A stretch of DNA of 64,000 nt from an uncultured virus (IMG/VR IMGVR_UViG_3300042878_002054) (taxonomy: Duplodnaviria; Heunggongvirae; Uroviricota; Caudoviricetes). The stretch lies in IMG/VR virus record IMGVR_UViG_3300042878_002054, one strand, 5' to 3'. Shown here piece by piece: positions 10,264 to 58,689 of this stretch; position 1 is the stretch's first letter; each line of letters opens with the position of its first letter. The position numbers and the translations under genes are program-made. Under the pieces are notes generated by a model. The model was given only the letters and a program-made list of their open reading frames with translations, ran no database searches and was not told the DNA's origin.

Positions 10264-10539
10264 ATGAAAGACTTCATAGATGAAGATAAGTATAAAGAGT
10301 ATTATGAGTTTATAGATTTCATAATGAATATGGCTATAAAATCACAGTACTACGAAATCGCGGCATGGATAAGAGGTGTTAAAAAAGAATTGGGATATTC
10401 TATAGTATTCGAAGAAGATTTAAGTATAGAAAGTTTTCTAAATTTAGTAAACCATAGAATGGAAATATTAGATGAAAAGGATCGAAATATCGTAACACCT
10501 CATTTAAGAGACTTAAAACTAAAAATGCTTAATATTTAG
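10264..10539 (+). CDS. Hypothetical protein with UVR-like YE.AA.IR motif and C-terminal RDLKL tag
   Basis: AIKSQYYEIAAWIR; ends LRDLKLKMLNI. Confidence 0.6.
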   Translation: MKDFIDEDKYKEYYEFIDFIMNMAIKSQYYEIAAWIRGVKKELGYSIVFEEDLSIESFLNLVNHRMEILDEKDRNIVTPHLRDLKLKMLNI

Positions 10540-10897
10540 GGATTGGCATATCACTTGTTATTTGTATCTTAAATCCATAACCACTATCTTCATCAGATCC
10601 ATATTTAGTTTCTGTATGATATCCATATCCACCATCAAACGAAATAGGTTTTGGACCATTCATTTGTTGCCTTCTTCTCATTTCCTCTTCTTTTCTCTTA
10701 GATTCTTCCTGTGCCAACATTTGTTCAAATGTTAATCCGTTATCTACATGAGTAGTAGGTTCTTGATGTGTAGAATATTGTGTATTTTGATATCCATACT
10801 TTCTCAAAAGCTGCTCTGCTTCCCAACTATCAATGTTAGGATTTTCGTTTGTCTCAACTTGTTGGCCTTGTATAAGCCTTACTTCTGGTCTTTGCAT
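10529..10897 (-). CDS. Hypothetical protein
   Basis: 122-aa ORF, closely coupled to 10900..11355. Confidence 0.7.
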   Translation of the reverse strand: MQRPEVRLIQGQQVETNENPNIDSWEAEQLLRKYGYQNTQYSTHQEPTTHVDNGLTFEQMLAQEESKRKEEEMRRRQQMNGPKPISFDGGYGYHTETKYGSDEDSGYGFKIQITSDMPIPKY

Positions 10898-10899
10898 GT

Positions 10900-11355
10900 T
10901 TAACTTATTGTTTTTATTAGGTTTATCCTATTCATGTCACTTTCTAATCTATATCCTTCTATAGGATTGTTTTTCAAATATCTAGTATAAAGTTTTGTTC
11001 TTTTTGTTATTACATATTTACCTTCTGTTTCCTTAGAGATTCCTTCAAATCTTAAAGTCTTTACCCAAGGTGTCGAATTCAAAAAAGAAGTAACAACATC
11101 ACCAAAAATAGTCTTTGTAACTCTAAATATGCTAGAATTAACAATCTTATCAACGCTCCAATCCAAAATATCCTCATCCCAAACAAAATAAGTAAGTTCG
11201 TAAGAACTACCTAAAATAGAGTTGTTAGGTCCTGTCGAATCGTTTTTGAATTGAACCAAATAATCATTTCCATCCATATCGGTGAATCCATATTTCACTA
11301 CAAACTTATCACAAGGTAACAAGCTTATTTCATATGATTCTATCATAACTATCAA
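10900..11355 (-). CDS. Hypothetical protein
   Basis: 151-aa ORF; TTTAATATATA upstream; start uncertain. Confidence 0.7.
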   Translation of the reverse strand: MIVMIESYEISLLPCDKFVVKYGFTDMDGNDYLVQFKNDSTGPNNSILGSSYELTYFVWDEDILDWSVDKIVNSSIFRVTKTIFGDVVTSFLNSTPWVKTLRFEGISKETEGKYVITKRTKLYTRYLKNNPIEGYRLESDMNRINLIKTIS

Positions 11356-11435
11356 TGTATTTATAATACATTATATATTAAAAATATAATATGATTATAA
11401 AGAAAATAGAAACATGATAAGAAGATATATAAACT

Positions 11436-12161
11436 ATGAAATATAATATAGTAGCATTAGACCCTTCTTTGATATCGACCGCTCTCGTAATAAGCTCTGG
11501 AGAAACATTTAAGATGTATAATTATTGTAGAGAAAGCTCTGCATTTGGTAAAACAGGAATAAAAAAATGGTTCAAATTAGCAGAACAATTCGTAACTTAC
11601 AAGTTTATAACGTATAGAGAATTTGTAGACTATTCAGAAGGAGAACTTACAAAGTTAAAAGACTATGATAAGATAACTGACGAAATCATATCAGATATAT
11701 TGTCAAATATCGATACATCAAAACCAACAAAGATTGGAATAGAAGGATATTCTTTTTCAAGTACTGCAGGTGATATAATCGATTTAGTTACATTTTCAAC
11801 TCTATTAAGAAAGAAACTATTTGATCAGATTTCGGAAGATATAACAGTTATGTCTCCGTCTACACTAAAATTAGAATCATGTAAACTGACTTATCCACCT
11901 ATTGTTACCGAAACAGGGAAAAAAGTGAAAAAAGTAAAGATTGAGTATAGAAATAATCTTGGATTATCAGGCGGAAAGTTCACCAAAACTGATATGTTTA
12001 TGGCAATAGTTGATAACAACGAAATGCAAGACTTTTGGACTAAACATTGTAAACTTGTAAAGTCTGATGTGTTAGGTGTTGCCACAATTCCAAAACCGTA
12101 TGAAGATGTAAATGACGCATTTTTGATATACAGCGTTCTTAAAAAAGAAAACCAGTCTTAA
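11436..12161 (+). CDS. RuvC-like (RNase H fold) Holliday junction resolvase
   Basis: IVALDPSLISTAL, IGIEGYSF, SPSTLK, EDVNDAF acidic catalytic pattern. Confidence 0.7.
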   Translation: MKYNIVALDPSLISTALVISSGETFKMYNYCRESSAFGKTGIKKWFKLAEQFVTYKFITYREFVDYSEGELTKLKDYDKITDEIISDILSNIDTSKPTKIGIEGYSFSSTAGDIIDLVTFSTLLRKKLFDQISEDITVMSPSTLKLESCKLTYPPIVTETGKKVKKVKIEYRNNLGLSGGKFTKTDMFMAIVDNNEMQDFWTKHCKLVKSDVLGVATIPKPYEDVNDAFLIYSVLKKENQS

Positions 12162-12177
12162 AAGACTGGTTTTTTTT
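12148..12177. terminator. Bidirectional terminator between convergent genes
   Basis: AAAACCAGTCTT-AA-AAGACTGGTTTT. Confidence 0.85.
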
Positions 12178-12178
12178 A

Positions 12179-14335
12179 TTATTTTAAATGCCATAACTTG
12201 TTTGGTGGAAGCTCGTCAAATTCGGTTTGTTCATATTTCTCAATTAGAGGCTTAAGATATTCTAAATATAGTTTTTTTCTATCTTCTATAGCTAGTTTTC
12301 TACTATGTCCTAACCAAGTGTATGCTGAAGCGAATCCCATTGTTCCTCCATTTTCAATAACATAATCAATAACTTCTGTTCTACCATATTCAATAGCCCA
12401 TTTTATAATCATATATCTACCTCTTTTATCAGTAAGACTTGCACCATAATCAAGTAGCATTTTAATACCATCTAAGTAGCACTCTCCAATATCTGAGGCA
12501 CTTACATAACTACCCTTACAAGATCTTCTTACAGGAAGTGAATCTTCAAAACTAGGATCTAATCCATTATCCAAACAGAATTTAACCGCATCTATATCAT
12601 GACAGATATTGTTGTATACCGTTGCAGTAAGTTCTGAATTATTTGCAACTAAAAGTTTAATCATTTCCAATGAAGTTGCATCGTTGATAACACCTTCTTT
12701 TGGTGGTTTTAGATTTGGTGAACCACCAAGAGATAATATCAATTTAGCTTTCTCTAAATCATTTTCCTGAACAGCATGTTGAAGAACTTTACAAGCTTCT
12801 CTATTGATATCGGCACCATCTACAGTAACATATTGCTTAATCTGTTCCATGGTTATTCCTTTTTTAACAATCTCAATATTTGCGGCTCTTGATTTTCTTC
12901 TTTTTTCAAGATCTTCAGAAGTAACTGGTCTTAAAAGAGCGAAAAGTGCACCGTATTTTGAAACCTCAGCATCTGTAGCACCAAGTTGTTTAGCCTTTTC
13001 TTTAGCATTACTTTCCACATCGTATTCTGTACCCCAATCCTTCAATATGTTTATCACGTTTCCTGCAACATTTCCATCTATCTTGTTGTGTGCTGCTCTA
13101 ATGTGATTTTGTCTATCATCTGGCTCGATTGTGATTCCTATAGTAAAAAGAGAGTTTGATTGTGCCAAGTTGAAGTTATAAACATAATATTGCATGTTTT
13201 CTTCTACCTGTCTACCCTGTCTGTCTTTGTTCACATAACCCTCCCATTGTGACAAAGAGTCTTTGATACAATGTGAAGTATGTGCATTAAGTATTCTATT
13301 TGCACCAAAAGACTTAACTGATATGATGAATATGCCGTTTTCGTTGAAAATCTCTTCTCCACCCATCGCACCAAATTTCATTGTACAATCTTGAAACTTT
13401 TGGTAGAAGCTGTTGAATCCATCATTGTCTGTTGCTTTTGCATATGCTAATGCCTTTTCAATCAAATCTCTAATATTTTTATATCTAGAAACAGGGCTTC
13501 TAAAAACTACCTGTCCTTTTGTTTTTGAACCTTCTCTATCATCCAATAACATTCTTCCCCAGAATCCTTTGTATAGTTCATCGTGTTTTGATTTATCACC
13601 ACCACCAAGAGCGTCGAATGCCATAGCTACTTCTAAAAATTGGTCTTTGATTATCTGTGGAGAATCCTTTAAGTCTCTTTTCAAATGTGGCGGAAGATCT
13701 GCCTCCATTTTCTTATAGTATCTTAGATTCTCAAGCCTGTTCAATCCATCAATCAAAAGCTCCATATTGTTAGGAACTTTCATGTTTATGTAGTTAGTAT
13801 CGAATGCCTTTTTGGTTATTTTACCATTTACTGATATATCAAGGTTTGACAATATATCTTTATTTAGTAATAAATTTGTGTATAAAGTTTTTAAATCCTG
13901 AAGATTAGCATTTTCATAATAGTAAAAATAAACAAAATTTCCCAACCAACCCATGTGGTCTCTATCTAATTGATATTCTTTTTCAATCGTATTACCATTT
14001 ACATCCTGAACAGGAATTTTGGTCTTAAGCTCTCTTACTTGTTTAAACTCGTTAGTAGATATGAGTTCTCTAAGCTGTTCTTCACTCACCGTGATTGTTC
14101 TCATAGTATCACCAAGCTCTTTTTTCTTCTCGGCGTCTAATTTTATAAAGTCTAAAGGAGTTACAGAACGTTTATTACCATTTGACATATCATATTTTGT
14201 CTCATCATCAATAAGGTTCAATTGATTTGCAGCAGTAGTAAGGATATATCTATCCTTCATGAGCTTTTTGGCTTTGTCTAGATTTTCGTTTATTGAAAAC
14301 TGATCTAAAAATTGGTTATATTTCTTAAATATCAT
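12179..14335 (-). CDS. Ankyrin-repeat-containing protein with N-terminal K.YNQF..E motif
   Basis: LQHAVQENDLEKAKLILSLGGSPN, IKMLLDYGA and IKWAIEYGRTEVIDYVIENG ankyrin-like repeats. Confidence 0.7.
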   Translation of the reverse strand: MIFKKYNQFLDQFSINENLDKAKKLMKDRYILTTAANQLNLIDDETKYDMSNGNKRSVTPLDFIKLDAEKKKELGDTMRTITVSEEQLRELISTNEFKQVRELKTKIPVQDVNGNTIEKEYQLDRDHMGWLGNFVYFYYYENANLQDLKTLYTNLLLNKDILSNLDISVNGKITKKAFDTNYINMKVPNNMELLIDGLNRLENLRYYKKMEADLPPHLKRDLKDSPQIIKDQFLEVAMAFDALGGGDKSKHDELYKGFWGRMLLDDREGSKTKGQVVFRSPVSRYKNIRDLIEKALAYAKATDNDGFNSFYQKFQDCTMKFGAMGGEEIFNENGIFIISVKSFGANRILNAHTSHCIKDSLSQWEGYVNKDRQGRQVEENMQYYVYNFNLAQSNSLFTIGITIEPDDRQNHIRAAHNKIDGNVAGNVINILKDWGTEYDVESNAKEKAKQLGATDAEVSKYGALFALLRPVTSEDLEKRRKSRAANIEIVKKGITMEQIKQYVTVDGADINREACKVLQHAVQENDLEKAKLILSLGGSPNLKPPKEGVINDATSLEMIKLLVANNSELTATVYNNICHDIDAVKFCLDNGLDPSFEDSLPVRRSCKGSYVSASDIGECYLDGIKMLLDYGASLTDKRGRYMIIKWAIEYGRTEVIDYVIENGGTMGFASAYTWLGHSRKLAIEDRKKLYLEYLKPLIEKYEQTEFDELPPNKLWHLK

Positions 14336-17454: not shown

Positions 17455-17997
17455 ATGAAGAAATTTTCAGACTTAAAAAAACCTAAAATAAGAAGAATAT
17501 TCGAGCAAGACGAAATGTCTGTAGCAAACCTACCACAAGCAGTAGGTGCACAAGTACAGGCTCAAGCTCAGGCAGAACAAGAAAGTGGTGTTGAAAGACC
17601 ACAAATATTAGGAGAAGGTTCACACCCAGGTAAATTTTTCTCTAAATTGTTTGAATCTAGAGAAATGGCACACATTTATCACTTACAAGTAAATGGTGAT
17701 ATGGGTTCACATGCAAAACATATTGCATTAGGTGAATACTACGATGGTGTTTTAAGTTTAATCGATGATGTGATTGAGACATATCAAGGTCAATATGGTA
17801 TTATCGAAGAGTATGATGTGATTGATACTAAAGATACTAAATCAAAAGATACTATTGAATATTTTAATGAGTTAGCAAGATTTGTCAAAGAAGAAAGAAA
17901 ATGTATCAATATAGAAGATACTCACCTACATAGTGTAATAGATGATATTGTTGTTCTGGTTTACAAAACTCTTTATAAGCTTAAATATACTAAATAA
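17455..17997 (+). CDS. Dps/ferritin-like four-helix protein of T4-like phages
   Basis: AHIYHLQV...HIALGEYYD...IDDVIETYQGQYG...KTLYKL. Confidence 0.7.
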   Translation: MKKFSDLKKPKIRRIFEQDEMSVANLPQAVGAQVQAQAQAEQESGVERPQILGEGSHPGKFFSKLFESREMAHIYHLQVNGDMGSHAKHIALGEYYDGVLSLIDDVIETYQGQYGIIEEYDVIDTKDTKSKDTIEYFNELARFVKEERKCINIEDTHLHSVIDDIVVLVYKTLYKLKYTK

Positions 17998-18012
17998 AAG
18001 TATTATTATATC

Positions 18013-18042
18013 AGAAAAGCCTACTCTTCAGTAGGCTTTTCT
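18013..18042. terminator. Bidirectional terminator
   Basis: AGAAAAGCCTACT-CTTC-AGTAGGCTTTTCT. Confidence 0.8.
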
Positions 18043-18254
18043 ATTTTGTATATCTTTTCTATTCTTGATTTTCTTCTCCAGTTCTTCATCCAGAAATCCA
18101 TATAGAATCCGTTGTTTACGGTTGTAGTTGAATATCTACTTTTAAGTGTCATTCTTGGTGAGAAATTGCTTTCTACTATTGCAGGTGTTGTACTTTGTAT
18201 TAGATAAGGAGCCCAGACTACTCCCGGACTATTTCCTTTCTTTCCTATCAGCAT
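18021..18254 (-). CDS. 77-aa protein resembling the C-terminal segment of a gp23-type major capsid protein, with C-terminal tag
   Basis: IGKKG..PGVVWAPY...NFSPRMTLKSRY resembles gp23 VGYKG..AGIYYAPY...NFQPVMGFKTRY; ends RKSRIEKIY. Confidence 0.65.
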   Translation of the reverse strand: MLIGKKGNSPGVVWAPYLIQSTTPAIVESNFSPRMTLKSRYSTTTVNNGFYMDFWMKNWRRKSRIEKIYKIEKPTEE

Positions 18255-18333
18255 TGAATATTCTTTCTATTTTTATTATTCTAAGTATATTTCTAAACTC
18301 AGAACCGAACTTCTTCTTTTTGAATTTTCCCAT
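18229..18333 (-). CDS. 34-aa tagged micro-protein (not in ORF track)
   Basis: MGKFKKKKFGSEFRNILRIIKIERIFNADRKERK*. Confidence 0.55.
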   Translation of the reverse strand: MGKFKKKKFGSEFRNILRIIKIERIFNADRKERK

Positions 18334-18472
18334 CAAATATCTTTCTTATCTTTTTGATTCTTTTCTGGGACCTAAACATTGTTCCGATATTGGGGTTGAA
18401 TTTCATATTTTCCCATTTATTACTGGAAGGGCCTCCCATTACGACTAGATTAGGATCTGGAGCACAAAACAT
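18299..18472 (-). CDS. 57-aa tagged micro-protein (not in ORF track)
   Basis: MFCAPDPNLVVMGGPSSNKWENMKFNPNIGTMFRSQKRIKKIRKIFDGKIQKEEVRF*. Confidence 0.6.
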   Translation of the reverse strand: MFCAPDPNLVVMGGPSSNKWENMKFNPNIGTMFRSQKRIKKIRKIFDGKIQKEEVRF

Positions 18473-18581
18473 TGTTTATCTTTTCTTTTCGTTTGTCTTT
18501 TCTCAACATCTTAGAAAATGCTCTAATTCCTTCAAGAATTGTTTTCTTCGTCGTTTCCGAGTGATTGTCCCAAATCGCCAT
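18450..18581 (-). CDS. 43-aa tagged micro-protein (not in ORF track)
   Basis: MAIWDNHSETTKKTILEGIRAFSKMLRKDKRKEKINNVLCSRS*. Confidence 0.6.
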   Translation of the reverse strand: MAIWDNHSETTKKTILEGIRAFSKMLRKDKRKEKINNVLCSRS

Positions 18582-18684
18582 ATATTCTTTCTATTTTTTC
18601 TTTTCTTAAAAGGTTTCGTATGGCTTTCCAATCTATTTCGAATATCGGACTTAGATAGTCACCATCATCATTAATCACTGCCAT
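18532..18684 (-). CDS. 50-aa tagged micro-protein (not in ORF track)
   Basis: MAVINDDGDYLSPIFEIDWKAIRNLLRKEKIERIYGDLGQSLGNDEENNS*; AAAC-N17-TATAA directly upstream. Confidence 0.65.
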   Translation of the reverse strand: MAVINDDGDYLSPIFEIDWKAIRNLLRKEKIERIYGDLGQSLGNDEENNS

Positions 18685-18689
18685 ACTTA

Positions 18690-18715
18690 TTATATCCGTA
18701 TAGTATTATTTGTTT
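18690..18715 (-). promoter_or_regulatory. Putative phage middle promoter AAAC-N17-TATAA
   Basis: The same motif precedes the helicase, DinG, polB and the ncRNA locus. Confidence 0.55.
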
Positions 18716-19026: not shown

Positions 19027-19042
19027 TTTTAAATATTAGATT

Positions 19043-19058
19043 TTAATATATATATTAA
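19043..19058. promoter_or_regulatory. Divergent late-promoter-like palindrome TTAATATATATATTAA
   Basis: Lies between the divergent genes starting at 19026(-) and 19060(+); contains AATATATA on both strands. Confidence 0.55.
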
Positions 19059-19059
19059 T

Positions 19060-25164: not shown

Positions 25165-25192
25165 AAAAGCCTGATAGTTTTATCAGGCTTTT
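25165..25192. terminator. Intrinsic terminator
   Basis: AAAAGCCTGATA-GTTT-TATCAGGCTTTT. Confidence 0.85.
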
Positions 25193-25275
25193 AATTTAAA
25201 AATATTACTTATCTTTCGCTTTCTTTTAATATGTGTGGCATTAAAAATAAAGTGTGTGTAGTGTGGTAGTGGCAT
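25183..25275 (-). CDS. 30-aa tagged micro-protein (not in ORF track)
   Basis: MPLPHYTHFIFNATHIKRKRKISNIFKLKA*; TAATG coupling to the upstream gene; RKRKISNIF tag. Confidence 0.55.
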   Translation of the reverse strand: MPLPHYTHFIFNATHIKRKRKISNIFKLKA

Positions 25276-29431: not shown

Positions 29432-29454
29432 AATATATAAAATTTTTTTAAGTT

Positions 29455-29495: not shown

Positions 29496-29506
29496 CATTA
29501 GTAGTT

Positions 29507-29795: not shown

Positions 29796-29804
29796 TAATA
29801 AAAT

Positions 29805-30090: not shown

Positions 30091-30109
30091 AGAATAAAAT
30101 TCAAATACA

Positions 30110-46204: not shown

Positions 46205-47047
46205 TTAAATAGCGATTTCTAGTTTTGACGAAAGTTTTTGTATTCCTTCAATCCCAGATATTTTAAAATCGTCTATGGTTATAGAGTAAAAGTCACGATT
46301 TGTTGTTATGATTAATAACTCTATAGAAGGATTTACATCAGTAAGGTTAGTTCTACCCAATATTTCTGGTATTGAGTCTACGTGTCTATCATAAACGTGT
46401 AGGTTTTGAACTAAATGACAGAACTTACCTACTTTATATCCTACGTGATGTGCAACCATCATTTGAAGTGCAACATACTGAATCTTATTGATATAACCTG
46501 CCATTAGATAGTCATTAGAACGCTGATCTAAAGTCATATCTAAATAGTATTCACCTTCTATTTTTCTTACAGACCAAGTAGTCTTGTATGCACAAGGAAA
46601 CAATCCTTCAGTTTCTTCTAAATCAGTATATTGGTACATATCGATGATGTGTCTTCTAGAAAATGGATCGTTCTTCAATCCGTTCAAAAGCTTGTTCATC
46701 AAATCATATCTTTTTACTGTAGCACCATATCTTTGACCGATTGTGTCATCACCTACATTCCATTCATCCCACCAGTTGATTCCCATCTCTCTAGCTTCAA
46801 CCAAAGAGTTAGATTGTTTTTGATAGATCCAAAGAATCTCTCTGATTCCTGTTTTGATTGCGGTGTTTCTCAAAGTAGTGATTGGAAACTCACCTTTTGA
46901 AATATCATATTCTTCGAATACTCCTGTTATAAACTTTGAGTTTGCCGGAGTTCCGTCAGCCCATTTTGGACGAGGATTTTCATCCCAAGATCCTTCTTTT
47001 AAAATCTTTCTTAGGTTTTGGATATAGTACCAGTCTGCTTTTATCAT
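46205..47047 (-). CDS. thyA: Thymidylate synthase
   Basis: FPITTLR, EILWI, WWDEW, IGQRYG, SRRHI, LFPCAY, QRSND, NLHVYDRH. Confidence 0.95.
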   Translation of the reverse strand: MIKADWYYIQNLRKILKEGSWDENPRPKWADGTPANSKFITGVFEEYDISKGEFPITTLRNTAIKTGIREILWIYQKQSNSLVEAREMGINWWDEWNVGDDTIGQRYGATVKRYDLMNKLLNGLKNDPFSRRHIIDMYQYTDLEETEGLFPCAYKTTWSVRKIEGEYYLDMTLDQRSNDYLMAGYINKIQYVALQMMVAHHVGYKVGKFCHLVQNLHVYDRHVDSIPEILGRTNLTDVNPSIELLIITTNRDFYSITIDDFKISGIEGIQKLSSKLEIAI

Positions 47048-47601
47048 TCTAATAGTGTTTTTATTTTTTCATCTCTTATGAAAGCTTTGATGAAGTCGTT
47101 TGCGATTACATCGTTTATTATAGCATAAGAACGTCCTTTGTTATATTTAGTTTGAAGAAAATAGTTTTTTGAATCGGTGATTTCCTCAGAAAAATTAAAT
47201 AAAGGAATAGAGGAACTATCACTACATGTAGCTATCTTTCTTACCGGAATCTTATCTAAAAAGTTGATATATTTCTTAGTTGTGGTGTCGTTATTTGGAA
47301 ATAGATAATCATATAGATAATCAATATCGTCTATGAATATAAAGTCTATTCCATCTTTTAAAGAAATCTCTTCTATTACTTTGAGTGTATTTATATTGTT
47401 TTCGTCGTCAGAGGATAAAAATCGACATAACTCGTATCTTTGATTAAGAAAGTGTGTTTTCTCTTCAAATTCGTTTGTAGCTGCCAAAAATATTATTTTC
47501 ATGTTTAGTTGAGACTTCATATCATAAGCAAGTGCATGCAACGCAGAGCTTTTCCACGTAGCATTACTACCTACTATTATATTGAAGTTATTTTCAAACA
47601 T
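47044..47601 (-). CDS. Degenerate RecA/DnaB-like P-loop fold protein with C-terminal tag
   Basis: IIVGSNATWKSS (altered Walker A), IDFIFIDDIDYL (Walker B-like); ends IRDEKIKTLLE. Confidence 0.55.
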   Translation of the reverse strand: MFENNFNIIVGSNATWKSSALHALAYDMKSQLNMKIIFLAATNEFEEKTHFLNQRYELCRFLSSDDENNINTLKVIEEISLKDGIDFIFIDDIDYLYDYLFPNNDTTTKKYINFLDKIPVRKIATCSDSSSIPLFNFSEEITDSKNYFLQTKYNKGRSYAIINDVIANDFIKAFIRDEKIKTLLE

Positions 47602-48389
47602 TATTTATAAGGACAATTTTGTTTCCATTTAGGGTTATACCAAAAAGTTCTTCCGGTGTTGTCTCTACATGATAAGCCTTTCTGATAGAATACCCATTTG
47701 AGGAACTCTTCATAGTCTGTATCGAACGGATTCTTCCAATCTTGTAGCTGACCACCATTGAGTTGGTAAGCTTTCATCGGAATATCTCTACACATGTCAA
47801 GTATCTCTGGATTTCTTTTTATGACTAAGCGAGCTTCCTCAAAAGGATCAACATCAAGATAGTAAAGAATCGTCGATCTCAAATAGTTTCCAATCCCGTT
47901 AAAGTACTTCTGTTCTAAAAGAGCTTCACAGATTGGTTTACTGAAAGGCTTCAGATGAAGATTGTCTACGACGTTGGTTTTAAAGGTTTCAAACTCTTTA
48001 GTTGGGTCCGGACCTCTTTTTGTAGCAAATCCACCTACTTTGTATTTTGGTCCCATATAGAGGCCGTAAAGAAGTAAAGACCAGCCATCGGTTGTATCCA
48101 TTCGCATTCTGACAAACTTTCTATCAGTCCAATCTTTGGTGGGTATCCAGAGCCAGTTCCCTGACATTCCCATAAAGACGGATATCTTAAAAGATGCAAC
48201 ATCATGATATACTTTTAATACTAATTCTTTACCATTAGATTCAGATTCAAGACGGAAATCTCCATCTGCAAGTGTAAATTCCGAAGGAATATTGCCTTTC
48301 GCTACATCGTATATCTTGTTGAATTTCTTTTCTTTGGCATTGACGTTTATATAGTCAGCCATTATTTTTAATTCTGCTAATTCAGGCAT
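47601..48389 (-). CDS. Fpg/Nei-family DNA glycosylase (NEIL1-like)
   Basis: MPELAE, GKEL, MGMSG, LLEQKYFNGIGNYLR (H2TH), DNTGRTFWY. Confidence 0.9.
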   Translation of the reverse strand: MPELAELKIMADYINVNAKEKKFNKIYDVAKGNIPSEFTLADGDFRLESESNGKELVLKVYHDVASFKISVFMGMSGNWLWIPTKDWTDRKFVRMRMDTTDGWSLLLYGLYMGPKYKVGGFATKRGPDPTKEFETFKTNVVDNLHLKPFSKPICEALLEQKYFNGIGNYLRSTILYYLDVDPFEEARLVIKRNPEILDMCRDIPMKAYQLNGGQLQDWKNPFDTDYEEFLKWVFYQKGLSCRDNTGRTFWYNPKWKQNCPYK

Positions 48390-48636
48390 CTAATATGTCG
48401 TTTATTTTTTCGTTTCTTATCAAGTCTTGGTTTAGCTCAATGAGTTCTCTTAGTGATATTTCTCTAGTTACCCATCTACCATGACCAGCATCACTTGTAC
48501 CGGGATTCTCTGTTCCAAACCAAACAACACATTTTGTTCGTTCGTATGTAATATATAGCCCATTGAATTCAGTCTCCATAGAAACCAATATTCCTTCACC
48601 ATATGGTGTGTTTACTTTACTATGTATTCTTAACAT
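48382..48636 (-). CDS. Small SH3-like hypothetical protein with C-terminal tag
   Basis: KVNTPYGEGILV; ends IRNEKINDILDA. Confidence 0.7.
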   Translation of the reverse strand: MLRIHSKVNTPYGEGILVSMETEFNGLYITYERTKCVVWFGTENPGTSDAGHGRWVTREISLRELIELNQDLIRNEKINDILDA

Positions 48637-49887: not shown

Positions 49888-50370
49888 TTATTCTTTTATA
49901 TATGTTATTTTGGATTTATAACAAAAAATACTCCAATATATTATATTTAATATTGGTGTCAAAAACCAGAATACTTTTATATCAAAAACAAATCTAGTAA
50001 TAAACTCAATAGCTATGCTCGTCAATATAGCGATTAGAAAGTACCAAACTAATCTATCAGATTTCTTTGAAAAAAGATACTTTTTAAATTTGTTTATTCG
50101 AGTAGCATCAGGAAATCCTGATTTTACAAACTGATCCAAACTTTCTTCTCTTTTACAAGCAACACAAAGTTTAAAATCTTCTTTTTGTAACATAGCAGCA
50201 AAGTCTGTGTAATCTAAATCATCGTGATTAACATCGGTAGAACAGCTATAACACTTCTCGCCTCTTCTTACTTCGAATGTTATTGACTTGTACTTTTTGA
50301 TTCGCCTGGTTGAATATATGAATCCAAAAATCAATGCGAAAAATTGAAGAAAAGTTAAAAAAGCTACCAT
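49888..50370 (-). CDS. Membrane protein with CxxC...CxxC zinc ribbon
   Basis: Three hydrophobic segments; CYSC and CVAC. Confidence 0.7.
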   Translation of the reverse strand: MVAFLTFLQFFALIFGFIYSTRRIKKYKSITFEVRRGEKCYSCSTDVNHDDLDYTDFAAMLQKEDFKLCVACKREESLDQFVKSGFPDATRINKFKKYLFSKKSDRLVWYFLIAILTSIAIEFITRFVFDIKVFWFLTPILNIIYWSIFCYKSKITYIKE

Positions 50371-50816
50371 TATCCTAAAATTGAAGTTAAAAATATATCT
50401 CTTTTTTCTGCCTTAGAAAGAGTTTTGAAACATTCCGGTCCTATTCCAGTTTCAATAGAAGAAGGAACGGTAAGTGGTCTATTACATTTACCACATTTAC
50501 CTTCATGCCATATTTCGATACACTCTGGTAAAGATTCTTTTTTGAGTTTATTAAGAACATAAGAGAAAACCTTCTCAGATTGAGCACCTGTGAAGTTGGA
50601 TTTTTTACCATGTTTGTAGATTCCGTTAGAAACTGTTCCTAAGTAGGAATACTGCTCGGGACCAGTTAAAACACTAACAAAGAAAAGATTACTATCTTTT
50701 GCTTTTTTAACTCGATAAGTGAATCTGTTTTCAGTTTCACTATTCAAAAAAGTAAATGTTGAGTTACCTGCGAAGATAAACTTTAACGCGTCGGAGTTAT
50801 TTAGTCTTTTGCTCAT
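50370..50816 (-). CDS. DUF6011-like zinc-binding phage protein with tag-like C-terminus
   Basis: CGKCNRPLTVPSSIETGIGPEC; ends KRDIFLTSILG; TATATTTG at 50832..50839. Confidence 0.75.
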   Translation of the reverse strand: MSKRLNNSDALKFIFAGNSTFTFLNSETENRFTYRVKKAKDSNLFFVSVLTGPEQYSYLGTVSNGIYKHGKKSNFTGAQSEKVFSYVLNKLKKESLPECIEIWHEGKCGKCNRPLTVPSSIETGIGPECFKTLSKAEKRDIFLTSILG

Positions 50817-54012: not shown

Positions 54013-54092
54013 TTCGAATAATATTAAGTTATTATAAACTATTATGGTACAAAGATAAGGAACTTTTTCTTATTTAGAAAAGTTTTAAACAA

Positions 54093-54650
54093 TTATTTGT
54101 TGAAAATATCGTCGATTTTTTTATCACGGATATATCCAGTCTTTAAAGAATCAAGTGTTGCTGTCCAACCATCAATTTTATTTGTTAGCCAAATTTCTGA
54201 TCTAGTGGCCATATAGCCAGAAATACTATTAGGTGCCGAATCTTTGTATTCTGACTTTACATGAAAGTCTGCAACATCTTCAGAGTCTTTATAGATGTAT
54301 TCTTTTGCTACTATTATATAGTCTATACCTAACTCGTCGATTAGTTCTTTGTATTTAGGTATAAGACCCCGACTAAGAGTCCAAAAGTCAAATATCATTA
54401 GATTAACTCTGAATCTATTTGCGGGATCTTCAATCTTAGATTTAAAATCTTCAAAGTCATTAAAAGTTATCTGTGGTGATATGTAATAAATAAGATTTGT
54501 GATGTTTTTTCCTGAAGAAGTTGGTTTTGGTGATGTGAACAATATAGGATTTCTACCATCTAATTCCAAAAATTTAACAATAGAACTTACTGCACTTGAA
54601 ACACATGCTATGTCTCCAGTAAAATAATTACAACGCTTTAGCTCTATCAT
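54093..54650 (-). CDS. Hypothetical protein (possibly degenerate P-loop fold) with C-terminal tag
   Basis: NLMIFDF Walker-B-like strand; ends IRDKKIDDIFNK. Confidence 0.65.
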   Translation of the reverse strand: MIELKRCNYFTGDIACVSSAVSSIVKFLELDGRNPILFTSPKPTSSGKNITNLIYYISPQITFNDFEDFKSKIEDPANRFRVNLMIFDFWTLSRGLIPKYKELIDELGIDYIIVAKEYIYKDSEDVADFHVKSEYKDSAPNSISGYMATRSEIWLTNKIDGWTATLDSLKTGYIRDKKIDDIFNK

Positions 54651-55026
54651 TTATGTTCTTTTTTCTTACGTTCACCATATATTTAAACTTGTTCAGAAAT
54701 CTTCTTCCAATCAACATTGGATATTTCATTTTTTTCCTATTAGTTAAGGATATATGAACCTTATAACTTTTTTCACCTAAAACCATCTTTGATATTATAG
54801 AAAATCTTTTTTGTTTCTTACCAAAAGAGTTACGCACCACTATGGTTTTGTACTTATCATACACATATTCCTTTTCGTCTATTATAAAGAAAAGTTTGTC
54901 ATCTTTTATGAAAATCTCATCTACATGAAGAGCGTTTCCATAGGCACCTGTGTCTATTTTCGCGTCTGTTGTTTCTATTCCAAGCTCAGGAAAAGAAACT
55001 TTTTCTGTTCTTCCCACATATTTCAT
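54628..55026 (-). CDS. Retropepsin-like aspartic protease (RimK-associated family)
   Basis: VGRTE, AKIDTGA, VRNSFG, R..MKYPMLIGRRFL; TATCTTTG at 55051..55058. Confidence 0.85.
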   Translation of the reverse strand: MKYVGRTEKVSFPELGIETTDAKIDTGAYGNALHVDEIFIKDDKLFFIIDEKEYVYDKYKTIVVRNSFGKKQKRFSIISKMVLGEKSYKVHISLTNRKKMKYPMLIGRRFLNKFKYMVNVRKKNINDRAKAL

Positions 55027-55095: not shown

Positions 55096-55857
55096 ATGGG
55101 ATTCAATTATAATTTCACCTATATAATCAGTTATAGACATAGTGTAGAAAGACTGAATAATCTAAAAAGAACATTGGAGTGGATAAACGCTTTTTCCGGT
55201 GCAGAGATTATTATAGTAGAACAGGACAAGCATTCAAAGCTTAAAGACATCAAATTACCATGTAGACATATTTTTATAAAATCAAACATGCCTTTCAACA
55301 AGTCTTGGGGATTCAATGTAGGATTAAAATATGCGAATTCAAACGTAATAGTATTTGGTGATTCTGATTTGATAATGGACCCACAAGAGTTTATCAAATC
55401 TGTAAAGATGTTAGACCAATACGAGATGGTCAATCCTTATAACTCTGTTATTGACCTAACTCCACAAGAATCTGGTGCCGGTTTTGAACAGATAATGCAA
55501 ATCAACAGAGCAGGTAGAGGAGAAACTGATATTCAGAAAGTTCCTTTATGTGGTGGAATCTGTATCTTTAGAAGAGAAGCTATACATAAGATTGGTGGAT
55601 GGCACGAGGACTTTATCGGTTGGGGCGGAGAAGATGATTTTCAGTCAGTTAAGGTAAAAGCATTCTTAAACTGGTATGAAAATAAAGCAAAATGTTTCCA
55701 TATCTATCACGATAGATCTGCACCAGATATGAAATGGTATCAAAGAAATCTTCAACTTCTTCAAAAACTTAGTCCAATGAATAAAGAAGAGTTGCAAAAA
55801 GTGATAAACAACGTCACTCCAAAATCAGGTTTGAAATACAAATATGACAACTTTTAA
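55096..55857 (+). CDS. Glycosyltransferase (GT2/GT7 galactosyltransferase-like)
   Basis: IIVEQ, FNKSWGFNVG, DSD, GGWHEDFIGWGGEDDF, HIYH. Confidence 0.88.
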   Translation: MGFNYNFTYIISYRHSVERLNNLKRTLEWINAFSGAEIIIVEQDKHSKLKDIKLPCRHIFIKSNMPFNKSWGFNVGLKYANSNVIVFGDSDLIMDPQEFIKSVKMLDQYEMVNPYNSVIDLTPQESGAGFEQIMQINRAGRGETDIQKVPLCGGICIFRREAIHKIGGWHEDFIGWGGEDDFQSVKVKAFLNWYENKAKCFHIYHDRSAPDMKWYQRNLQLLQKLSPMNKEELQKVINNVTPKSGLKYKYDNF

Positions 55858-56578
55858 TGATAAACTAAAATCAATCTGTAACTACTCTGAAGAAAATAAG
55901 AGTATAGGTCCAACTGCCCAATTGATGTATATGGATATGATAGTAGAAGACGACGAGACTAGAAGAGAGGTAAAGAGAAAGAAAAGAAATCTTACAATAG
56001 ACACCGTTTTAGATGAGGTAGACGAAAACGGAGACTACACATCTGAGACAATATCTTCAGAAGAAGGATCTATTGCGACAATATCTCCAAAGATCATGAC
56101 TCTAAATACTCAATCAAATCCTTTTGTAGATGATGAGAGTTTATACAATAATGTAATCACATTTTTAGAAAGTAACACAAAACAAAAACACCATTATCCA
56201 ATAAGTCTTGATTATGTGGCGATGAACGACCCACATAGTACATTAGAGGAAAACAACGCAATAAACTTCAGAAGGATTATAACAAAGATTGCACACGCAT
56301 CCAACTTTATCGCAGCAGAAGGAAGAATGGGTCCAGGAACCGCAGTGATTGTCGGTAGAAATAACTGGCATTGGTTCGATAGTCAATCAGATTTTATGCT
56401 TGGAACTATTTCTATTATATTAGATGAAAACATTAGTCCAAATAAGATTATAGTCGCTCGTGGTGGTAGAATGGATCAGAGTGGTATTATATGTGTAAAA
56501 AGTATACCAGATAATACTTATTGTCTAAAAGAAACTCCACATTGGGAAAAACAATATGTATGGTTTACTGTAAAATAA
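55844..56578 (+). CDS. Protein resembling a truncated gp23-type major capsid protein with an internal tag
   Basis: IGPTAQLMYMD; KRNLTIDTVL; FRRIITKIAHASNFIAAEGRMGPGTAVIVGRN; IILDE....KIIVARGG...SGII. Confidence 0.55.
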   Translation: MTTFNDKLKSICNYSEENKSIGPTAQLMYMDMIVEDDETRREVKRKKRNLTIDTVLDEVDENGDYTSETISSEEGSIATISPKIMTLNTQSNPFVDDESLYNNVITFLESNTKQKHHYPISLDYVAMNDPHSTLEENNAINFRRIITKIAHASNFIAAEGRMGPGTAVIVGRNNWHWFDSQSDFMLGTISIILDENISPNKIIVARGGRMDQSGIICVKSIPDNTYCLKETPHWEKQYVWFTVK

Positions 56579-56579
56579 G

Positions 56580-56604
56580 AAAAGCACTCATTTGAGTGCT
56601 TTTT
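56580..56604. terminator. Bidirectional terminator
   Basis: AAAAGCACTCA-TT-TGAGTGCTTTT. Confidence 0.85.
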
Positions 56605-57160
56605 ATGTATATTGAAGTTTTTTTGCTGGTATTCTTACCTTATCATATTTAGTAAGTAACTTATAAAGTTTTTCCCATTCTTCTTTAGGATTTCTAACGA
56701 TTCTTTCATACCATTTATTGTTGTTCTGATACTCTACAACCATTCCTATTTTAAGATCCTCTTGAGATTTTGGTTTCCAATATCTAGTCTTTTCTACAAA
56801 AGAAAATGATATTCCACTATGTATGTATGATTTGTTTGATTCGTTAGTATTGTACATTACTATCTCTAATGGTTCTTCTGAACCGTTAAAGAAAACTCTT
56901 TTGGCTTCTGACTCACCTAAATATTTTATGATTGCGTTTTTTTCGTTGAAATGTCCTAAAAGAAAAAGAACATCGTTTCTAAGTTCATCGTTGTCTGTTC
57001 TACCAAATGCCATTATTGAATCTTCGAACATACCTTCAAAATATCCTTTTATTGGAAGTATTTGATAGTTCTTTGCATACAATACTGATGTAATCTGATC
57101 CAGATTTTCAGAAGAAGAAATAAGCATGTATGAAGTGTTTGGTTGTTCTAATCCTAGCAT
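56603..57160 (-). CDS. Hypothetical protein
   Basis: 185-aa ORF. Confidence 0.75.
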   Translation of the reverse strand: MLGLEQPNTSYMLISSSENLDQITSVLYAKNYQILPIKGYFEGMFEDSIMAFGRTDNDELRNDVLFLLGHFNEKNAIIKYLGESEAKRVFFNGSEEPLEIVMYNTNESNKSYIHSGISFSFVEKTRYWKPKSQEDLKIGMVVEYQNNNKWYERIVRNPKEEWEKLYKLLTKYDKVRIPAKKLQYT

Positions 57161-57205
57161 AGTTTATATATAAATATTTCCTTCTGGTATATCTTATATA
57201 TTATT

Positions 57206-58477
57206 TTAAAAAAGGTGAAATTCCTCATAAAGCTTTGTTTTGAATATGGCTTCGACCTCATCTCTTTTATTTCTTGGTATTATTATACTATCGTGAACAG
57301 TAACTATTTTTATTTCTGGAAAAGAATTTTTAACTTCTCGTATTATTTTATTGAAGATTAAATTAGACTCTGCTTTTTGTAGTTCATATGCCAAAACTTT
57401 ATAGTCTCCTTTTTCCTTTTTGTATAGTTTTATGAAATTGTGTATAGTTGGAAATAGTTCTCTGAACACTTTGTCTGCTTTGCTATTGTGAACGTTTCTT
57501 CCAAATAAGACTTTGTACGTCATTTCTTTGACCATAGGACGATCATTTGTCTTCATATGATTCATTACGTGTTGGTAGTAGTTTCCGTTTACCGTAAGGT
57601 CTCTAAATAGCTCAAACTCCTCGGTGTTTACCCATTTAGAGTTACTATCTGCTATTATCTTAGTAAGGAACAAAGGTTGACTATTCTTTATGTCAATCTC
57701 ATGTGTTTCCTCACCATCCAATAAAAGACAGTTCTTTCTAATGAAAGATTTTAATATAGTGAAGTTTGTGTGCATTCTTCCGTAACTATCAAAATGATAG
57801 AATATATGTTTGTCGTTCACACATTCAACAGAGTATCTGTTTCTGTTATATATGTCAGTGTCGTTGTGTTGAAGATTATCTAAATAGAATATGGCTCTAT
57901 CAAACTCTATCTTTGTATAGAATAGGTCGTCTACAAGCATCGCTTTTATATCTGCGTCTATTAATCCATTTTTTATTCCATCTTCTTCTACTTGTGATAC
58001 CTTGTTTTTGTACTTCTTCAAAAGAGTCGTGTCTTTGTTGACGTATCTCTTTATTTTTCCTTTAAGTATGTGTTCTGATATCTTATAGACTTTGGCGTTT
58101 CTACCTGCTCTATAGTTTGCGACCATAGATATGGTCTTCGTTTCTATTAGATAGTCCATATAGTAGTTGTATAGGTGTCCGTACTTCTCTTTGAGAATGG
58201 TGGACATGAGATGAAATCTGTTGTCTTTTTTGAAATAGTATTTCAGTATTAAGTTGTGGACTATATCTAAAGCATATGAAGACTTTAGTTTTTGACCTTT
58301 ATATTCGAAGTTTTTGTTTTTTGAAAATTCCTCCATCGATTCTGGTAAAAACTGAAGACTGTGTTTTTTGTCTTCTAGTTTCTTTCTGATATTGGAATAG
58401 CCACTGATTTTGAATAATGGTACGATTGAATTTTCACTCATACATTTTATATCCACTAGTTCAGGATATGTTTTCAT
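57206..58477 (-). CDS. Compact PolA/T7-RNAP-like palm-domain protein with putative N-terminal winged helix
   Basis: YGRMHT, EIDIKNSQP, R..VK...YKVLFG, FPTI, LQKAES, VTVHDSII. Confidence 0.55.
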   Translation of the reverse strand: MKTYPELVDIKCMSENSIVPLFKISGYSNIRKKLEDKKHSLQFLPESMEEFSKNKNFEYKGQKLKSSYALDIVHNLILKYYFKKDNRFHLMSTILKEKYGHLYNYYMDYLIETKTISMVANYRAGRNAKVYKISEHILKGKIKRYVNKDTTLLKKYKNKVSQVEEDGIKNGLIDADIKAMLVDDLFYTKIEFDRAIFYLDNLQHNDTDIYNRNRYSVECVNDKHIFYHFDSYGRMHTNFTILKSFIRKNCLLLDGEETHEIDIKNSQPLFLTKIIADSNSKWVNTEEFELFRDLTVNGNYYQHVMNHMKTNDRPMVKEMTYKVLFGRNVHNSKADKVFRELFPTIHNFIKLYKKEKGDYKVLAYELQKAESNLIFNKIIREVKNSFPEIKIVTVHDSIIIPRNKRDEVEAIFKTKLYEEFHLF

Positions 58478-58689
58478 GATTCGTAAATTTTGCGAACCTT
58501 TGATCTTCTACCTGAAGTTCTGTTAATATCCTTCCATTCTTTCATAAGAGTTGCCTCTATTTCAGAGACATGGTCCATACCATACATACTCTGTAAATCA
58601 GTCGCTAGCTCGCGGGTCCATTGAGCACGCAAAGGTCTTGTCTCTGTTTTTACTTCAACAGAGGTCATCTTTAAATCTATAGATTTCAT
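58474..58689 (-). CDS. 71-aa protein resembling the central helix segment of a gp23-type major capsid protein, with C-terminal tag
   Basis: TRPLRAQWTRELATDLQSMYGMD..SEI...L..E...INR resembles gp23 SRQLKAAYSIELAQDLRAVHGMDADAEL..IL..EI..EINR; ends RRSKVRKIYES. Confidence 0.75.
   Translation of the reverse strand: MKSIDLKMTSVEVKTETRPLRAQWTRELATDLQSMYGMDHVSEIEATLMKEWKDINRTSGRRSKVRKIYES

Follow-up and report, generated by a model that had tools for sequence, protein, structure and literature searches.

A short C-terminal tag common to many small, mutually unrelated proteins of an uncultured giant Bacteroidota phage and its relatives

About one gene in six in a 64,000-nucleotide stretch of DNA from an uncultured giant Bacteroidota phage (IMG/VR record IMGVR_UViG_3300042878_002054; the whole stretch is referred to here as the window) encodes a small protein that is unrelated to the other members of the set and has in common with them a ten-residue C-terminal tag, a predicted helix. 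Established features of the tag are its C-terminal position, its portability, its maintenance by selection as a peptide and its occurrence across a clade of huge Bacteroidota phages; a literature search returned no description of it. A shared C-terminal motif had been noticed in an earlier sequence-only reading of the window, and this observation is confirmed: all 14 motif copies were recovered at their coordinates, those named there with translations as written. The strict pattern [RK][KRDNES].[KR][IV]..[ILV][FLY] matched 12 times in the six frames of the window, and 10 of these matches lay no more than 15 residues before a stop, eight in ORFs counted as genes and the other two in frames that run from stop to stop over 17 and 23 codons. 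Among the 71 ORFs, strict matches within 20 residues of the end numbered 8, the expectation from 500 shuffles being 0.078 and the highest shuffled count 2; internal matches numbered 2, against 0.61. Judged by eye, the tag closes 12 of the 71 ORFs, and three of these copies depart from the strict pattern at one position.

The main relative used for comparison (LR745206.1; 634,780 bp, 943 ORFs) carried the strict pattern at the C termini of 50 ORFs, against 0.9 expected from 200 shuffles (maximum, 4), and internally 13 times against 7.0 expected; with a loose pattern, C-terminal matches numbered 88 against 3.1 and internal matches 26 against 22.8. In a second relative, LR756502.1, a stop lay within 8 codons for 12 of 15 matches to the pattern at the DNA level, compared with 0 for a reversed control pattern, so that the genome-wide C-terminal enrichment proposed as a check in the earlier reading is present in both relatives. 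Across IMG/VR, 53 of 78 valid matches had a stop within 8 codons. Bearers are mostly small, the tag being present in 38 of 195 ORFs of 60 to 100 aa versus 2 of 213 ORFs of at least 250 aa.

The earlier reading had also claimed that selection acts on the peptide, citing two copies with different codons (AAG GTT CGC AAA ATT versus AAA ATA GAA AGA ATA, a contrast quoted correctly), and the claim is borne out. Arg is encoded in the tags by AGA (35), AGG (6), CGT (6), CGA (1), and CGC (1) and Leu by TTA (25), CTT (6), TTG (4), and CTA (2); both codon families are present for each residue, and usage is near that of the genome. For 17 distinct orthologues of one family, pS and pN were 0.80 and 0.17 in the tag and 0.63 and 0.35 in the body (pN/pS, 0.22 versus 0.56), and a DNA matrix of the motif gave 0 antisense and 2 out-of-frame matches among 69, which is not the behavior of a frame-independent DNA or RNA element, the second outcome that the earlier reading had named as refuting its view. 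The mixed codon families, the low pN/pS of the tag and the near-absence of off-frame matches together argue for selection on the peptide, and a helix kept at the protein level in this way resembles an address label.

These data also bear on the idea that the motif is a by-product or an agent of gene packing, with an A-rich region that serves the next gene for translation start or coupling being read, by chance, as R-K-x-K-I. The idea draws on an array of five overlapping minus-strand mini-ORFs (18021 to 18684; the 18 kb array of the earlier reading), each containing the motif and each successive ATG lying directly after it in the +1 frame; on the same layout in LR745206.1; and on tails after the tag that overlap the next gene by at least 5 nt in 14 of 49 tagged genes versus 86 of 892 untagged genes of that relative (p 2.7e-4). 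Against it, Arg and Leu are each drawn from both codon families, the tag combines saturated synonymous sites with little replacement change, and the DNA matrix is nearly silent off frame. In addition, the next gene is on the opposite strand for 10 of 49 tagged genes, no start lies within 15 nt for 21 of 49, a hairpin follows 18021-18254, a convergent gene follows 10264-10539, and one internal copy of the tag is conserved. Gene packing as the sole cause is thus largely refuted by codon families, pN/pS, the DNA matrix and next-gene layout, and we give the idea very little credence. The overlap excess, which had been missed previously, suggests that C-terminal placement may partly serve gene packing.

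Within the array, ORF 1 (18532..18684, 50 aa) carries RKEKIERIY at 18580-18606, the Y codon of which is overlapped in the +1 frame by the ATG of ORF 2 (18450..18581, 43 aa; RKEKINNVL at 18465-18491). A 44-aa look-alike of ORF 2 (IMG/VR locus L135) starts MSIWENQS and carries RKNKIKRLY, and a homologue of ORF 3 (18299..18472, 57 aa; (R)IKKIRKIF at 18335-18358) in the relative starts MFVAPDPN and carries RKEKIEKIF. ORF 4 (18229..18333, 34 aa; RIIKIERIF at 18256-18282), for which no homologue was found, is the weakest member. ORF 5 (18021..18254, 77 aa; RKSRIEKIY at 18048-18074) joins the tag to a C-terminal excerpt of a capsid protein, matching residues 492-539 of the relative's capsid protein by BLASTP (E 2e-11) and Pfam Gp23 at 22.1 bits, under the cut-off; a terminator-like hairpin (18013-18042) follows. 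The array site varies among relatives, a tagged mini-ORF being present at 9 of 24 loci.

The tag reads h-R-[D/K]-x-K-I-x-x-I-[L/F] and is followed by 0 to 7 free residues, which are polar and variable. It occurs in an acid flavor, h-R-D-x-K-I-x-x-I-L, and a second flavor found on tiny genes, R-K-x-K-I-x-x-I-F; the flavor positions are correlated (Fisher p 5e-6), which may point to two readers or two use classes. This division had escaped the earlier reading. The tag is predicted to form an amphipathic helix of two to three turns, with h0, K4, I8, R1, I5, L9, and D2 on a conserved face and positions 3, 6, and 7 free to vary on the opposite face, and the possession of one conserved and one free face fits docking to a single conserved surface. 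It is strongly conserved across payload families that are 43-97% identical, and no conserved protease-type site was seen upstream of it. AF2 models of the 54093..54650 and 48382..48636 products place the helix, at low confidence, as a protruding element. Such predicted exposure, together with the R/K and D of the acid flavor on the conserved face, which could be self-complementary, might instead suit a common oligomerization helix through which the tags bind each other in putative mixed assemblies lacking a separate reader; we consider this improbable, given the short length of a helix of about ten residues for forming a stable bundle, the lack of self-complementarity in the basic flavor and the absence of an obvious purpose in mixing 50-90 proteins indiscriminately.

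Outside the array, two bearers contain capsid sequence. The minus-strand ORF 58474..58689 encodes a 71-aa mini-protein excerpted from a gp23-type capsid strand and spine helix (Pfam Gp23 E 1.3e-9, 38.4 bits, profile 132-187), with the tag RRSKVRKIY (58483-58509) and the tail ES; its orthologue in the relative retains the tag as RKESINKIF. The 244-aa mosaic at 55844..56578 (plus strand) has capsid-like segments at aa 20-38 and 143-218 and an internal tag, RNLTIDTVL (55985-56011), retained in the orthologue as RQNAINSIL; BLASTP aligns it with residues 412-508 of the relative's capsid protein (E 3e-9), the N-terminal piece reaching E 0.25. At 54093..54650 (minus strand), a 185-aa payload ends in YIRDKKIDDIF (tag, 54102-54128) and the tail NK. 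Among its 63 homologues, R175 is present in 63, D176 in 61, K178 in 61, and I179 in 60; the AF2 model (pLDDT 86.9) places the tag at the distal end of helix 166-183, with pLDDT declining there to 70 and then to 61, and the predicted fold matches KaiC/RadA/RecA (E about 2e-4). The other 185-aa protein (47044..47601, minus strand), with a P-loop-like N terminus and the ending FIRDEKIKTLL (tag, 47050-47076) plus E, aligns with it at the tag only (BLASTP E 0.41).

A small beta protein of 84 aa (48382..48636, minus strand) ends in IRNEKINDIL (tag, 48391-48417) and the tail DA, and the tag, or a K-L-x-E-[IL]-G-[IL] variant of it, is retained in 39 homologues; AF2 predicts a body (residues 2-61) with no fold match in the PDB, a helix (62-68), a coil and a separate tag helix (75-81; pLDDT 65, then 54). 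Also on the minus strand, the 148-aa DUF6011 zinc-ribbon protein at 50370..50816 (Pfam PF19474, E 1.6e-12) ends in a looser RDIFLTSIL (50376-50402) plus G, its orthologue ending in KRDSFLKSILG, and the 30-aa micro-ORF at 25183..25275 carries RKRKISNIF (25198-25224) and the tail KLKA, its 35-aa syntenic counterpart in the relative starting MPLP and carrying RKDKIKNIF, then KSDK. The 91-aa protein at 10264..10539 (plus strand), the last gene before a convergent gene, ends in a loose RDLKLKML (10507-10530) plus NI and has no orthologue in LR745206.1 and no Pfam family. In the 160-aa membrane-like protein at 49888..50370 (minus strand), the internal REESLDQFV (50125-50151) is only a loose match and a doubtful copy, and we have not counted it as a tag; RDEKINLV occupies the corresponding position in the orthologue.

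Only one pair of related bodies (E<1e-3) was found among 89 loosely tagged proteins, in agreement with the earlier picture of a tag that is portable, mostly C-terminal and attached to unrelated payloads, and some tagged bodies correspond to pieces of capsid, scaffold or polymerase proteins. The earlier interpretation is thus partly supported, with a putative common partner and an adaptor or targeted-degradation role as its hypothetical part. The accompanying description of payloads as broken modules fared unevenly: the capsid fragments and the zinc ribbon stand, a degenerate P-loop is upheld by predicted fold at 54093-54650 and has a weak, sub-threshold AAA_15 match at 47044-47601 (E 0.012), and the UVR-like helix lacks Pfam support.

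We think it probable that the tag docks its many small accessory bearers, as a portable address, to some shared reader. As 50-90 different proteins carry it, the reader would need a high capacity, and we tentatively favor the assembling prohead core, through a gp21-type protease fused to scaffold, or else the inner capsid wall, so that tagged proteins might be taken into the head and delivered along with the DNA. The small size of the bearers, the variable array site and the construction of bearers from capsid and scaffold pieces favor head loading, as do the T4-type portal, capsid and protease-scaffold genes of LR745206.1 (gp20, gp21, and gp23 homologues); in these phages the scaffold part of the gp21-type protease fusion contains 12 repeats of 14 residues. 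These head genes, like the Clp genes discussed below, are known from the relative rather than from the window's own genome, which counts against the reading. According to two papers (PMC3012670; PMC5694885), the diverse, defense-countering internal proteins of T-even phages (IPI-III, Alt) are fast changing and have in common only a capsid-targeting sequence (CTS) of about 10-20 residues, which loads them into the scaffolding core and can be moved to foreign proteins, and the tag would be similar as the sole feature shared by diverse small accessory proteins of a phage with a T4-type head. The CTS is N-terminal, removed by the prohead protease and confined to a handful of bearers, whereas the present tag is C-terminal with no evident cleavage site and has tens of bearers per genome and two flavors. 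Both the position of the tag with no conserved protease-type site and the two flavors, with possibly two readers, count against head loading, as does the excess of next-gene overlaps described above. So do bearers that lie amid replication and nucleotide genes and have no evident role in the head: the RecA-like protein (54093-54650), the DUF6011 protein and a polymerase motif-A excerpt in the relative.

Several portable C-terminal peptides, such as ssrA, the MuA C-end and the SspB XB peptide, are well known either to dock on AAA+ unfoldases or to be fed to them, and the tag is likewise short, portable and C-terminal. The chief alternative to head loading is that it is a handle for the phage's own ClpC-ClpP, which would serve timed destruction of the bearers or dock them as adaptors or baits through which the payload's partner would be unfolded and degraded. 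LR745206.1 encodes ClpP (Pfam E 6.6e-54), DnaK, DnaJ, GrpE, and an unfoldase of ClpC type (701 aa, two AAA modules), the middle piece of which we take to be UVR-type and the VGF loop presumably of the kind that docks on ClpP. However, this ClpC lacks the N-domain, which is the usual docking site, having about 40 disordered residues before D1 and no Clp_N match at E 1e-7, and the tag is a predicted helix with invariant R, D/K, and K followed by polar, variable residues, unlike known C-terminal degrons; we therefore regard a ClpC handle as rather doubtful.

The conserved face, portability and conservation across payloads require a conserved reader but name none, and there is a modest chance that it is another hub: the host or phage RNA polymerase, the ribosome, a phage ankyrin-repeat or vWA protein, or two hubs for the two flavors. 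Rare interaction modules are encoded in the window, namely, ankyrin repeats (12179-14335) and a Ro60-type TROVE plus vWA protein (27977-29431), but a shared window is no evidence, and nothing is specific to any candidate. A tail for binding the sliding clamp, of PIP-box or T4 gp45-binding type, would match the tag in its extreme C-terminal position, in the shortness of its free end and in i, i+3, i+6, i+7 spacing, D2-I5-I8-L9 equaling that of the PIP consensus Q-x-x-h-x-x-a-a, as in the T4/RB69 polymerase tail; the C-half of the relative's PolB ends RRLSVVMDIFGGFK, with the skeleton R-x3-h-x2-I-F in common with the tag. Yet the tag has neither Q nor an aromatic pair, the near-invariant D2 and K4 are missing from that polymerase tail, a search of LR745206.1 with three Pfam clamp models found nothing, there is no reason for capsid and scaffold excerpts to encounter a clamp, and 50-90 competitors for one pocket are implausible, all of which makes a clamp tail most unlikely.

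Encapsulins, which are compartments of cells and take few types of cargo, have cargo-loading peptides: short C-terminal sequences on unrelated cargo proteins, recognized by the HK97-fold shell at its inner face. The tag resembles these peptides in being short, C-terminal and carried by unrelated proteins; it differs as a predicted charged amphipathic helix, where the encapsulin peptides are Gly/Ser/Leu-rich and extended.

The tag, a C-terminal motif of about 10 residues shared by otherwise unrelated small proteins, is present in the window at every position that the sequence-only reading had assigned to it, and the codon differences quoted there between copies are correct. With a strict pattern, [RK][KRDNES].[KR][IV]..[ILV][FLY], the six frames of the window yielded 12 matches, 10 of which have a stop no more than 15 codons away (8 in real ORFs and one each in a 17-codon and a 23-codon frame); the remaining 2 are internal. 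The 71 window ORFs contain 8 C-terminal strict matches, compared with a mean of 0.078 in residue shuffles (500 shuffles; maximum, 2), and 2 internal matches, compared with 0.61. Five tagged mini-ORFs, of 50, 43, 57, 34, and 77 codons, form an overlapping array at 18021-18684 on the minus strand, with one motif in each and with every following ATG placed directly after the motif in the +1 frame. A DNA repeat or tandem duplication was rejected as the cause, since the repeats at 17900-19100 are just 12 to 41 nt long, with identities of 66 to 100%. Two mini-ORFs of the related genome LR745206.1 are homologous to the array and share its tag and its overlapping layout, and the site is variable: at least one tagged mini-ORF was present in 9 of 24 related IMG/VR loci, with differing bodies. 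A 61-aa ORF at 39925-40110 (plus strand) ends KHIIDDIFFYDED, its tail overlapping the start of the next gene, and may carry a degenerate tag not listed by the earlier reading. An internal RDLKISKVL at 39042-39068 (minus strand), within the helicase at 38136-39803, also fits the tag pattern; because a long ORF of LR756502.1 has RDLKISKIL at a similar depth, this copy probably belongs to the helicase fold rather than being a tag.

The window is AT rich and densely coding (GC, 0.30 to 0.43 in 2-kb steps) and contains phage genes for tail-fibre-like proteins, ribonucleotide reductase, a DnaB-type helicase, a split family-B polymerase, and thymidylate synthase; Rfam and tRNA scans across it gave no match. 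Its closest records, LR745206.1 (634,780 bp) and LR756502.1 (642,428 bp), are both unannotated. A 7.9-kb window query was 36% covered by LR745206.1 at 68% identity, and 42 of the 71 window ORFs had a BLASTP match in that genome. Complete huge-phage genomes of 634, 636, 642, and 735 kb are assigned in PMC7162821 to a "Mahaphage" clade with predicted replication in Bacteroidetes.

Analysis of the whole of LR745206.1 (943 ORFs of at least 40 codons, called by a simple greedy rule) revealed 50 ORFs with the strict pattern within 20 residues of the C-terminal end, where shuffling predicts 0.9 (maximum of 4 in 200 shuffles), and 13 internal occurrences, where it predicts 7.0. A looser pattern gave 88 versus 3.1 at the C-terminal end and 26 versus 22.8 inside; the pattern fell in the first 29 residues of only 2 of the 943 ORFs, and its reversal gave 6 C-terminal and 5 internal matches. 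A degenerate DNA pattern for one flavour of the tag, that with an acidic residue or Asn at position 2, matched LR756502.1 15 times, with a stop within 8 codons after 12 of the matches, and the same pattern read backwards matched 0 times. A narrower DNA pattern hit 90 stretches of IMG/VR, from which 80 loci with 81 matches were examined; three had a stop inside the match, and of the 78 that were left, 53 were followed by a stop within 8 codons, 8 within 9 to 25 codons, and 1 further away, while 16 had no stop in the 150-nt flank, 11 of these being copies of three proteins. The enrichment at C termini that the earlier reading had proposed to seek genome-wide is therefore present in the LR745206.1, LR756502.1, and IMG/VR counts. 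A separate search added four tagged micro-ORFs of 15 to 39 codons.

Position counts give the consensus h(-1) R1 [D/K]2 x3 K4 I5 x6 x7 I8 [L/F]9, often followed by D or N and then by 0 to 7 residues before the stop. Plotted as a helical wheel, the conserved residues fall between 0 and 200 degrees, and positions 3, 6, and 7, which are free to vary, fall between 240 and 340 degrees. Two flavours can be distinguished, in which positions 2 and 9 are correlated (Fisher P = 5e-6): acid tags, with D, E, or N at position 2, have L at position 9 in 35 cases and F or Y in 3, with I at position 8 in 30 of 38, whereas basic tags, with K or R at position 2, have F or Y at position 9 in 9 cases and L in 2. 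The median length of the bearers is 105 residues for the acid flavour and 52 for the basic flavour. In the window, the proteins at 47044, 48382, and 54093, and more loosely those at 10264 and 50370, end in acid tags; those at 58474 and 25183 and the array ORFs end in basic tags. AlphaFold2 models built with family alignments predict the tag of the 185-aa RecA/KaiC-like protein at 54093-54650 (minus strand) to be the far end of a C-terminal helix (residues 166 to 183), along which pLDDT is 89, then 70, then 61, and that of the 84-aa protein at 48382-48636 (minus strand) to be a separate short helix (residues 75 to 81) that follows a coil (pLDDT 65, then 54). The tag is among the best-kept parts of both families, with R175 in 63 of 63 members of the 54093 family, D176 and K178 in 61 each, and I179 in 60, and orthologue pairs of the window and LR745206.1 retain it while their bodies are 32 to 68% identical. 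The 84-aa payload had no fold match in the PDB. The tag resembles the stretch that closes the capsid spine helix (ISKQIVAKIFEMG in LR745206.1) by eye only, and a derivation from it was dropped.

Selection acts on the peptide, as codon families, pN/pS, and a matrix scan all indicate. Among the 50 LR745206.1 tags, the codons for Arg are AGA (35), AGG (6), CGT (6), CGA (1), and CGC (1), and those for Leu at position 9 are TTA (25), CTT (6), TTG (4), and CTA (2), a usage near that of the genome as a whole. Among 27 coding sequences (17 distinct) of the 54093-54650 family from the window, LR745206.1, and IMG/VR, the 11 tag codons have a pS of 0.80 and a pN of 0.17 (ratio, 0.22), compared with 0.63 and 0.35 (ratio, 0.56) for the remainder of the gene. 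When a 27-nt weight matrix built from the DNA of the tags was scanned over both strands of LR745206.1, 55 of 69 matches were in frame and C-terminal, 7 were in frame and internal, 5 lay outside called ORFs, 2 were in another frame, and none were antisense. The three lines of evidence together rule out a DNA or RNA element conserved independently of reading frame, the outcome that the sequence-only reading had said would overturn its proposal. An excess of overlap with the following gene is real in LR745206.1, where the start of the next gene overlaps the tail behind the tag in 14 of 49 tagged genes compared with 86 of 892 untagged genes (P = 2.7e-4); this overlap may help to account for a helix being tolerated just before the stop, but it cannot account for the conservation of the tag, and pure coupling was rejected as its sole cause.

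The bodies to which the tag is attached are unrelated: among 89 loosely tagged proteins a single pair matched at an E value of <1e-3, and two 185-residue window proteins were rejected as paralogues because only the tag aligns. Carriage depends on size, the loose tag in LR745206.1 closing 38 of 195 ORFs of 60 to 100 residues, 31 of 231 of 100 to 150 residues, 9 of 243 of 150 to 250 residues, and 2 of 213 longer ORFs (<150 versus >150 residues; Fisher P = 1.5e-13); 19 of the first 101 genes of this genome are tagged. Body charge did not differ between tagged and untagged small proteins (P = 0.10). A subset of the bearers are cut-outs of larger phage proteins. In the window, 58474-58689 contains a gp23-type strand and spine helix (Pfam E value, 1.3e-9), 18021-18254 corresponds to residues 492 to 539 of the LR745206.1 capsid protein (E value, 2e-11), and 55844-56578 matches capsid residues 412 to 508 after an internal tag (E value, 3e-9); among the bearers in LR745206.1 there are also capsid pieces, runs of three to four 14-residue repeats from the scaffold, and a copy of polymerase motif A. 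The earlier description of the payloads as broken modules holds for the capsid fragments, with their gp23-type matches, but not for the UVR-like helix in 10264-10539, which was rejected: it had no Pfam match, and the ClpC middle piece was matched only by relaxed BLAST (E value, 0.11), a match lost with default BLAST statistics. For the RecA-like payload, a profile search of 1.84 billion representatives found no tagless or differently tagged relatives, which would have been a sign of tag swapping, so this family is silent on the portability of the tag; 65 of 76 new full-length matches fit the loose pattern, and the other 11 end in look-alikes. The gene for this payload belongs to a three-gene block at 52879-55026 (minus strand), between a RimB-like PF05618 protease and an M28 peptidase, and the gene order is kept in LR745206.1 (226012-228071), which has a second M28-like gene after the capsid gene.

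We tentatively suggest that the tag may load its bearers into the prohead after the manner of the T4 CTS, which is its closest working analogue. As described in PMC3012670 and PMC5694885, the T-even CTS of 10 to 20 residues is the sole conserved part of diverse internal proteins that counter host defences, and it loads these proteins, and foreign proteins too, into the scaffolding core. Tag and CTS are alike in being short peptides common to otherwise unrelated small proteins and in the company of T4-type prohead genes for portal, protease/scaffold core, and gp23-type shell, as seen in LR745206.1 (Portal_T4 E value, 2.7e-57; Gp23 E value, 1.8e-26), where a 707-residue protein joins a gp21-type protease to a scaffold in which YSEYLAENLDKNIx is repeated twelve times; one homologue of this fusion carries PF03420. 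They differ in that the CTS is N-terminal and removed, whereas the tag is found no more than 20 residues from the C-terminal end. The T4 prohead protease recognizes the site L/I-x-E. Position counts over the 10 residues before the tag revealed no conserved site, although the protease specificity of this clade may differ from that of T4. Encapsulin cargo-loading peptides, with their Gly/Ser/Leu-type consensus, are likewise short C-terminal peptides on diverse cargo, but the tag consensus, h-R-D/K-x-K-I-x-x-I-L/F, is not of that type.

With a lower probability, the tag would serve as a degron or docking handle for the phage's own ClpC-ClpP, in line with the protease reading of the sequence-only note; LR745206.1 encodes ClpP and a ClpC-type unfoldase (75119-75856 and 423224-425329), together with DnaK, DnaJ, and GrpE. 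The cognate unfoldase and peptidase expected of an AAA+ degron or adaptor docking peptide are present in that genome, but the unfoldase has no docking domain: no Clp_N or zinc-binding Pfam domain was detected at an E value of 1e-7, and D1 begins about 45 residues from the N-terminal end, the UVR-type middle piece and the VGF loop being kept and the N-domain absent. The protease-repeat scaffold and the pair of ClpP and N-domain-less ClpC are concrete candidate readers, or binding partners, of the tag. LR745206.1 also encodes EF-G, many aminoacyl-tRNA synthetases, PrkA/DUF444/SpoVR, Sir2, and an M16 peptidase.

A PIP box or T4-type clamp-binding tail would fit the C-terminal position, the match of D2, I5, I8, and L9 to polar-x-x-h-x-x-a-a, and the tails of 0 to 7 residues; this reading was set aside as improbable, as three Pfam clamp models recognized no clamp in LR745206.1 and the polymerase tail lacks D2 and K4. 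The tag has neither Gln at position 1 nor an aromatic pair, position 9 being L in 35 of 38 acid-type tags; the C-terminal half of the LR745206.1 PolB ends RRLSVVMDIFGGFK; and PF02916, PF09116, and PF02768 gave no match in that genome, although divergent clamps can escape these models. The family-B polymerase is split, with the exonuclease part and motif A in a 508-aa protein at window 44045-45571 (minus strand) and the C-terminal half at 130568-131992 of LR745206.1, about 100 kb away in that genome. A 319-aa protein at window 32794-33753 (minus strand), with a very acidic N-terminal half and 80% identity over 239 residues to its LR745206.1 orthologue, ends NKLNNIDFL, similar to the tails through which T4 late-transcription proteins bind the clamp.

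More speculatively, and with a low probability in our own estimation, the tag could be the common handle of a genome-wide phage "bait-and-handle" kit for targeted degradation or sequestration. Dozens of small proteins, some cut from the best-conserved parts of the phage's own capsid, scaffold, and polymerase, would act as baits that bind host immune sensors or the assembly parts of rival phages, and the helix would pass bait and catch to one machine, either the phage's ClpC-ClpP, which would destroy them, or the prohead, which would remove or deliver them, the two flavours of tag representing two routes. A full-text literature search found no published description of a shared C-terminal tag or of tagged capsid, scaffold, or polymerase cut-outs in huge phages. 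Short peptides that act as portable addresses are both uncommon and useful, and the T4 CTS and encapsulin loading peptides have been turned into tools for packing foreign proteins. Here, a 10-residue helix marks the products of 5 to 10% of genes in the largest known phages and up to 19% of their proteins of 60 to 100 residues, so that much of the "dark" small-protein content of huge phages falls into one functional class. Were the prohead the reader, tens of small proteins would be injected as an arsenal; were it the phage ClpC-ClpP, these phages would run their own programme of protein turnover or target destruction.

Two further window proteins have orthologues in LR745206.1. That at 27977-29431 (minus strand) combines a Ro60-type TROVE with a vWA domain, has 78% identity to the LR745206.1 protein, and adjoins a gap of about 700 nt without a long ORF (29432-30145); Rfam at the gathering threshold and ARAGORN gave no match in the window, a result compatible with either the presence or the absence of a Y-RNA-like partner. 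The other, a 718-aa protein at 12179-14335 (minus strand), has C-terminal ankyrin repeats, a module rare in phages, recognized here from sub-threshold Pfam matches, and is 39% identical to its orthologue.
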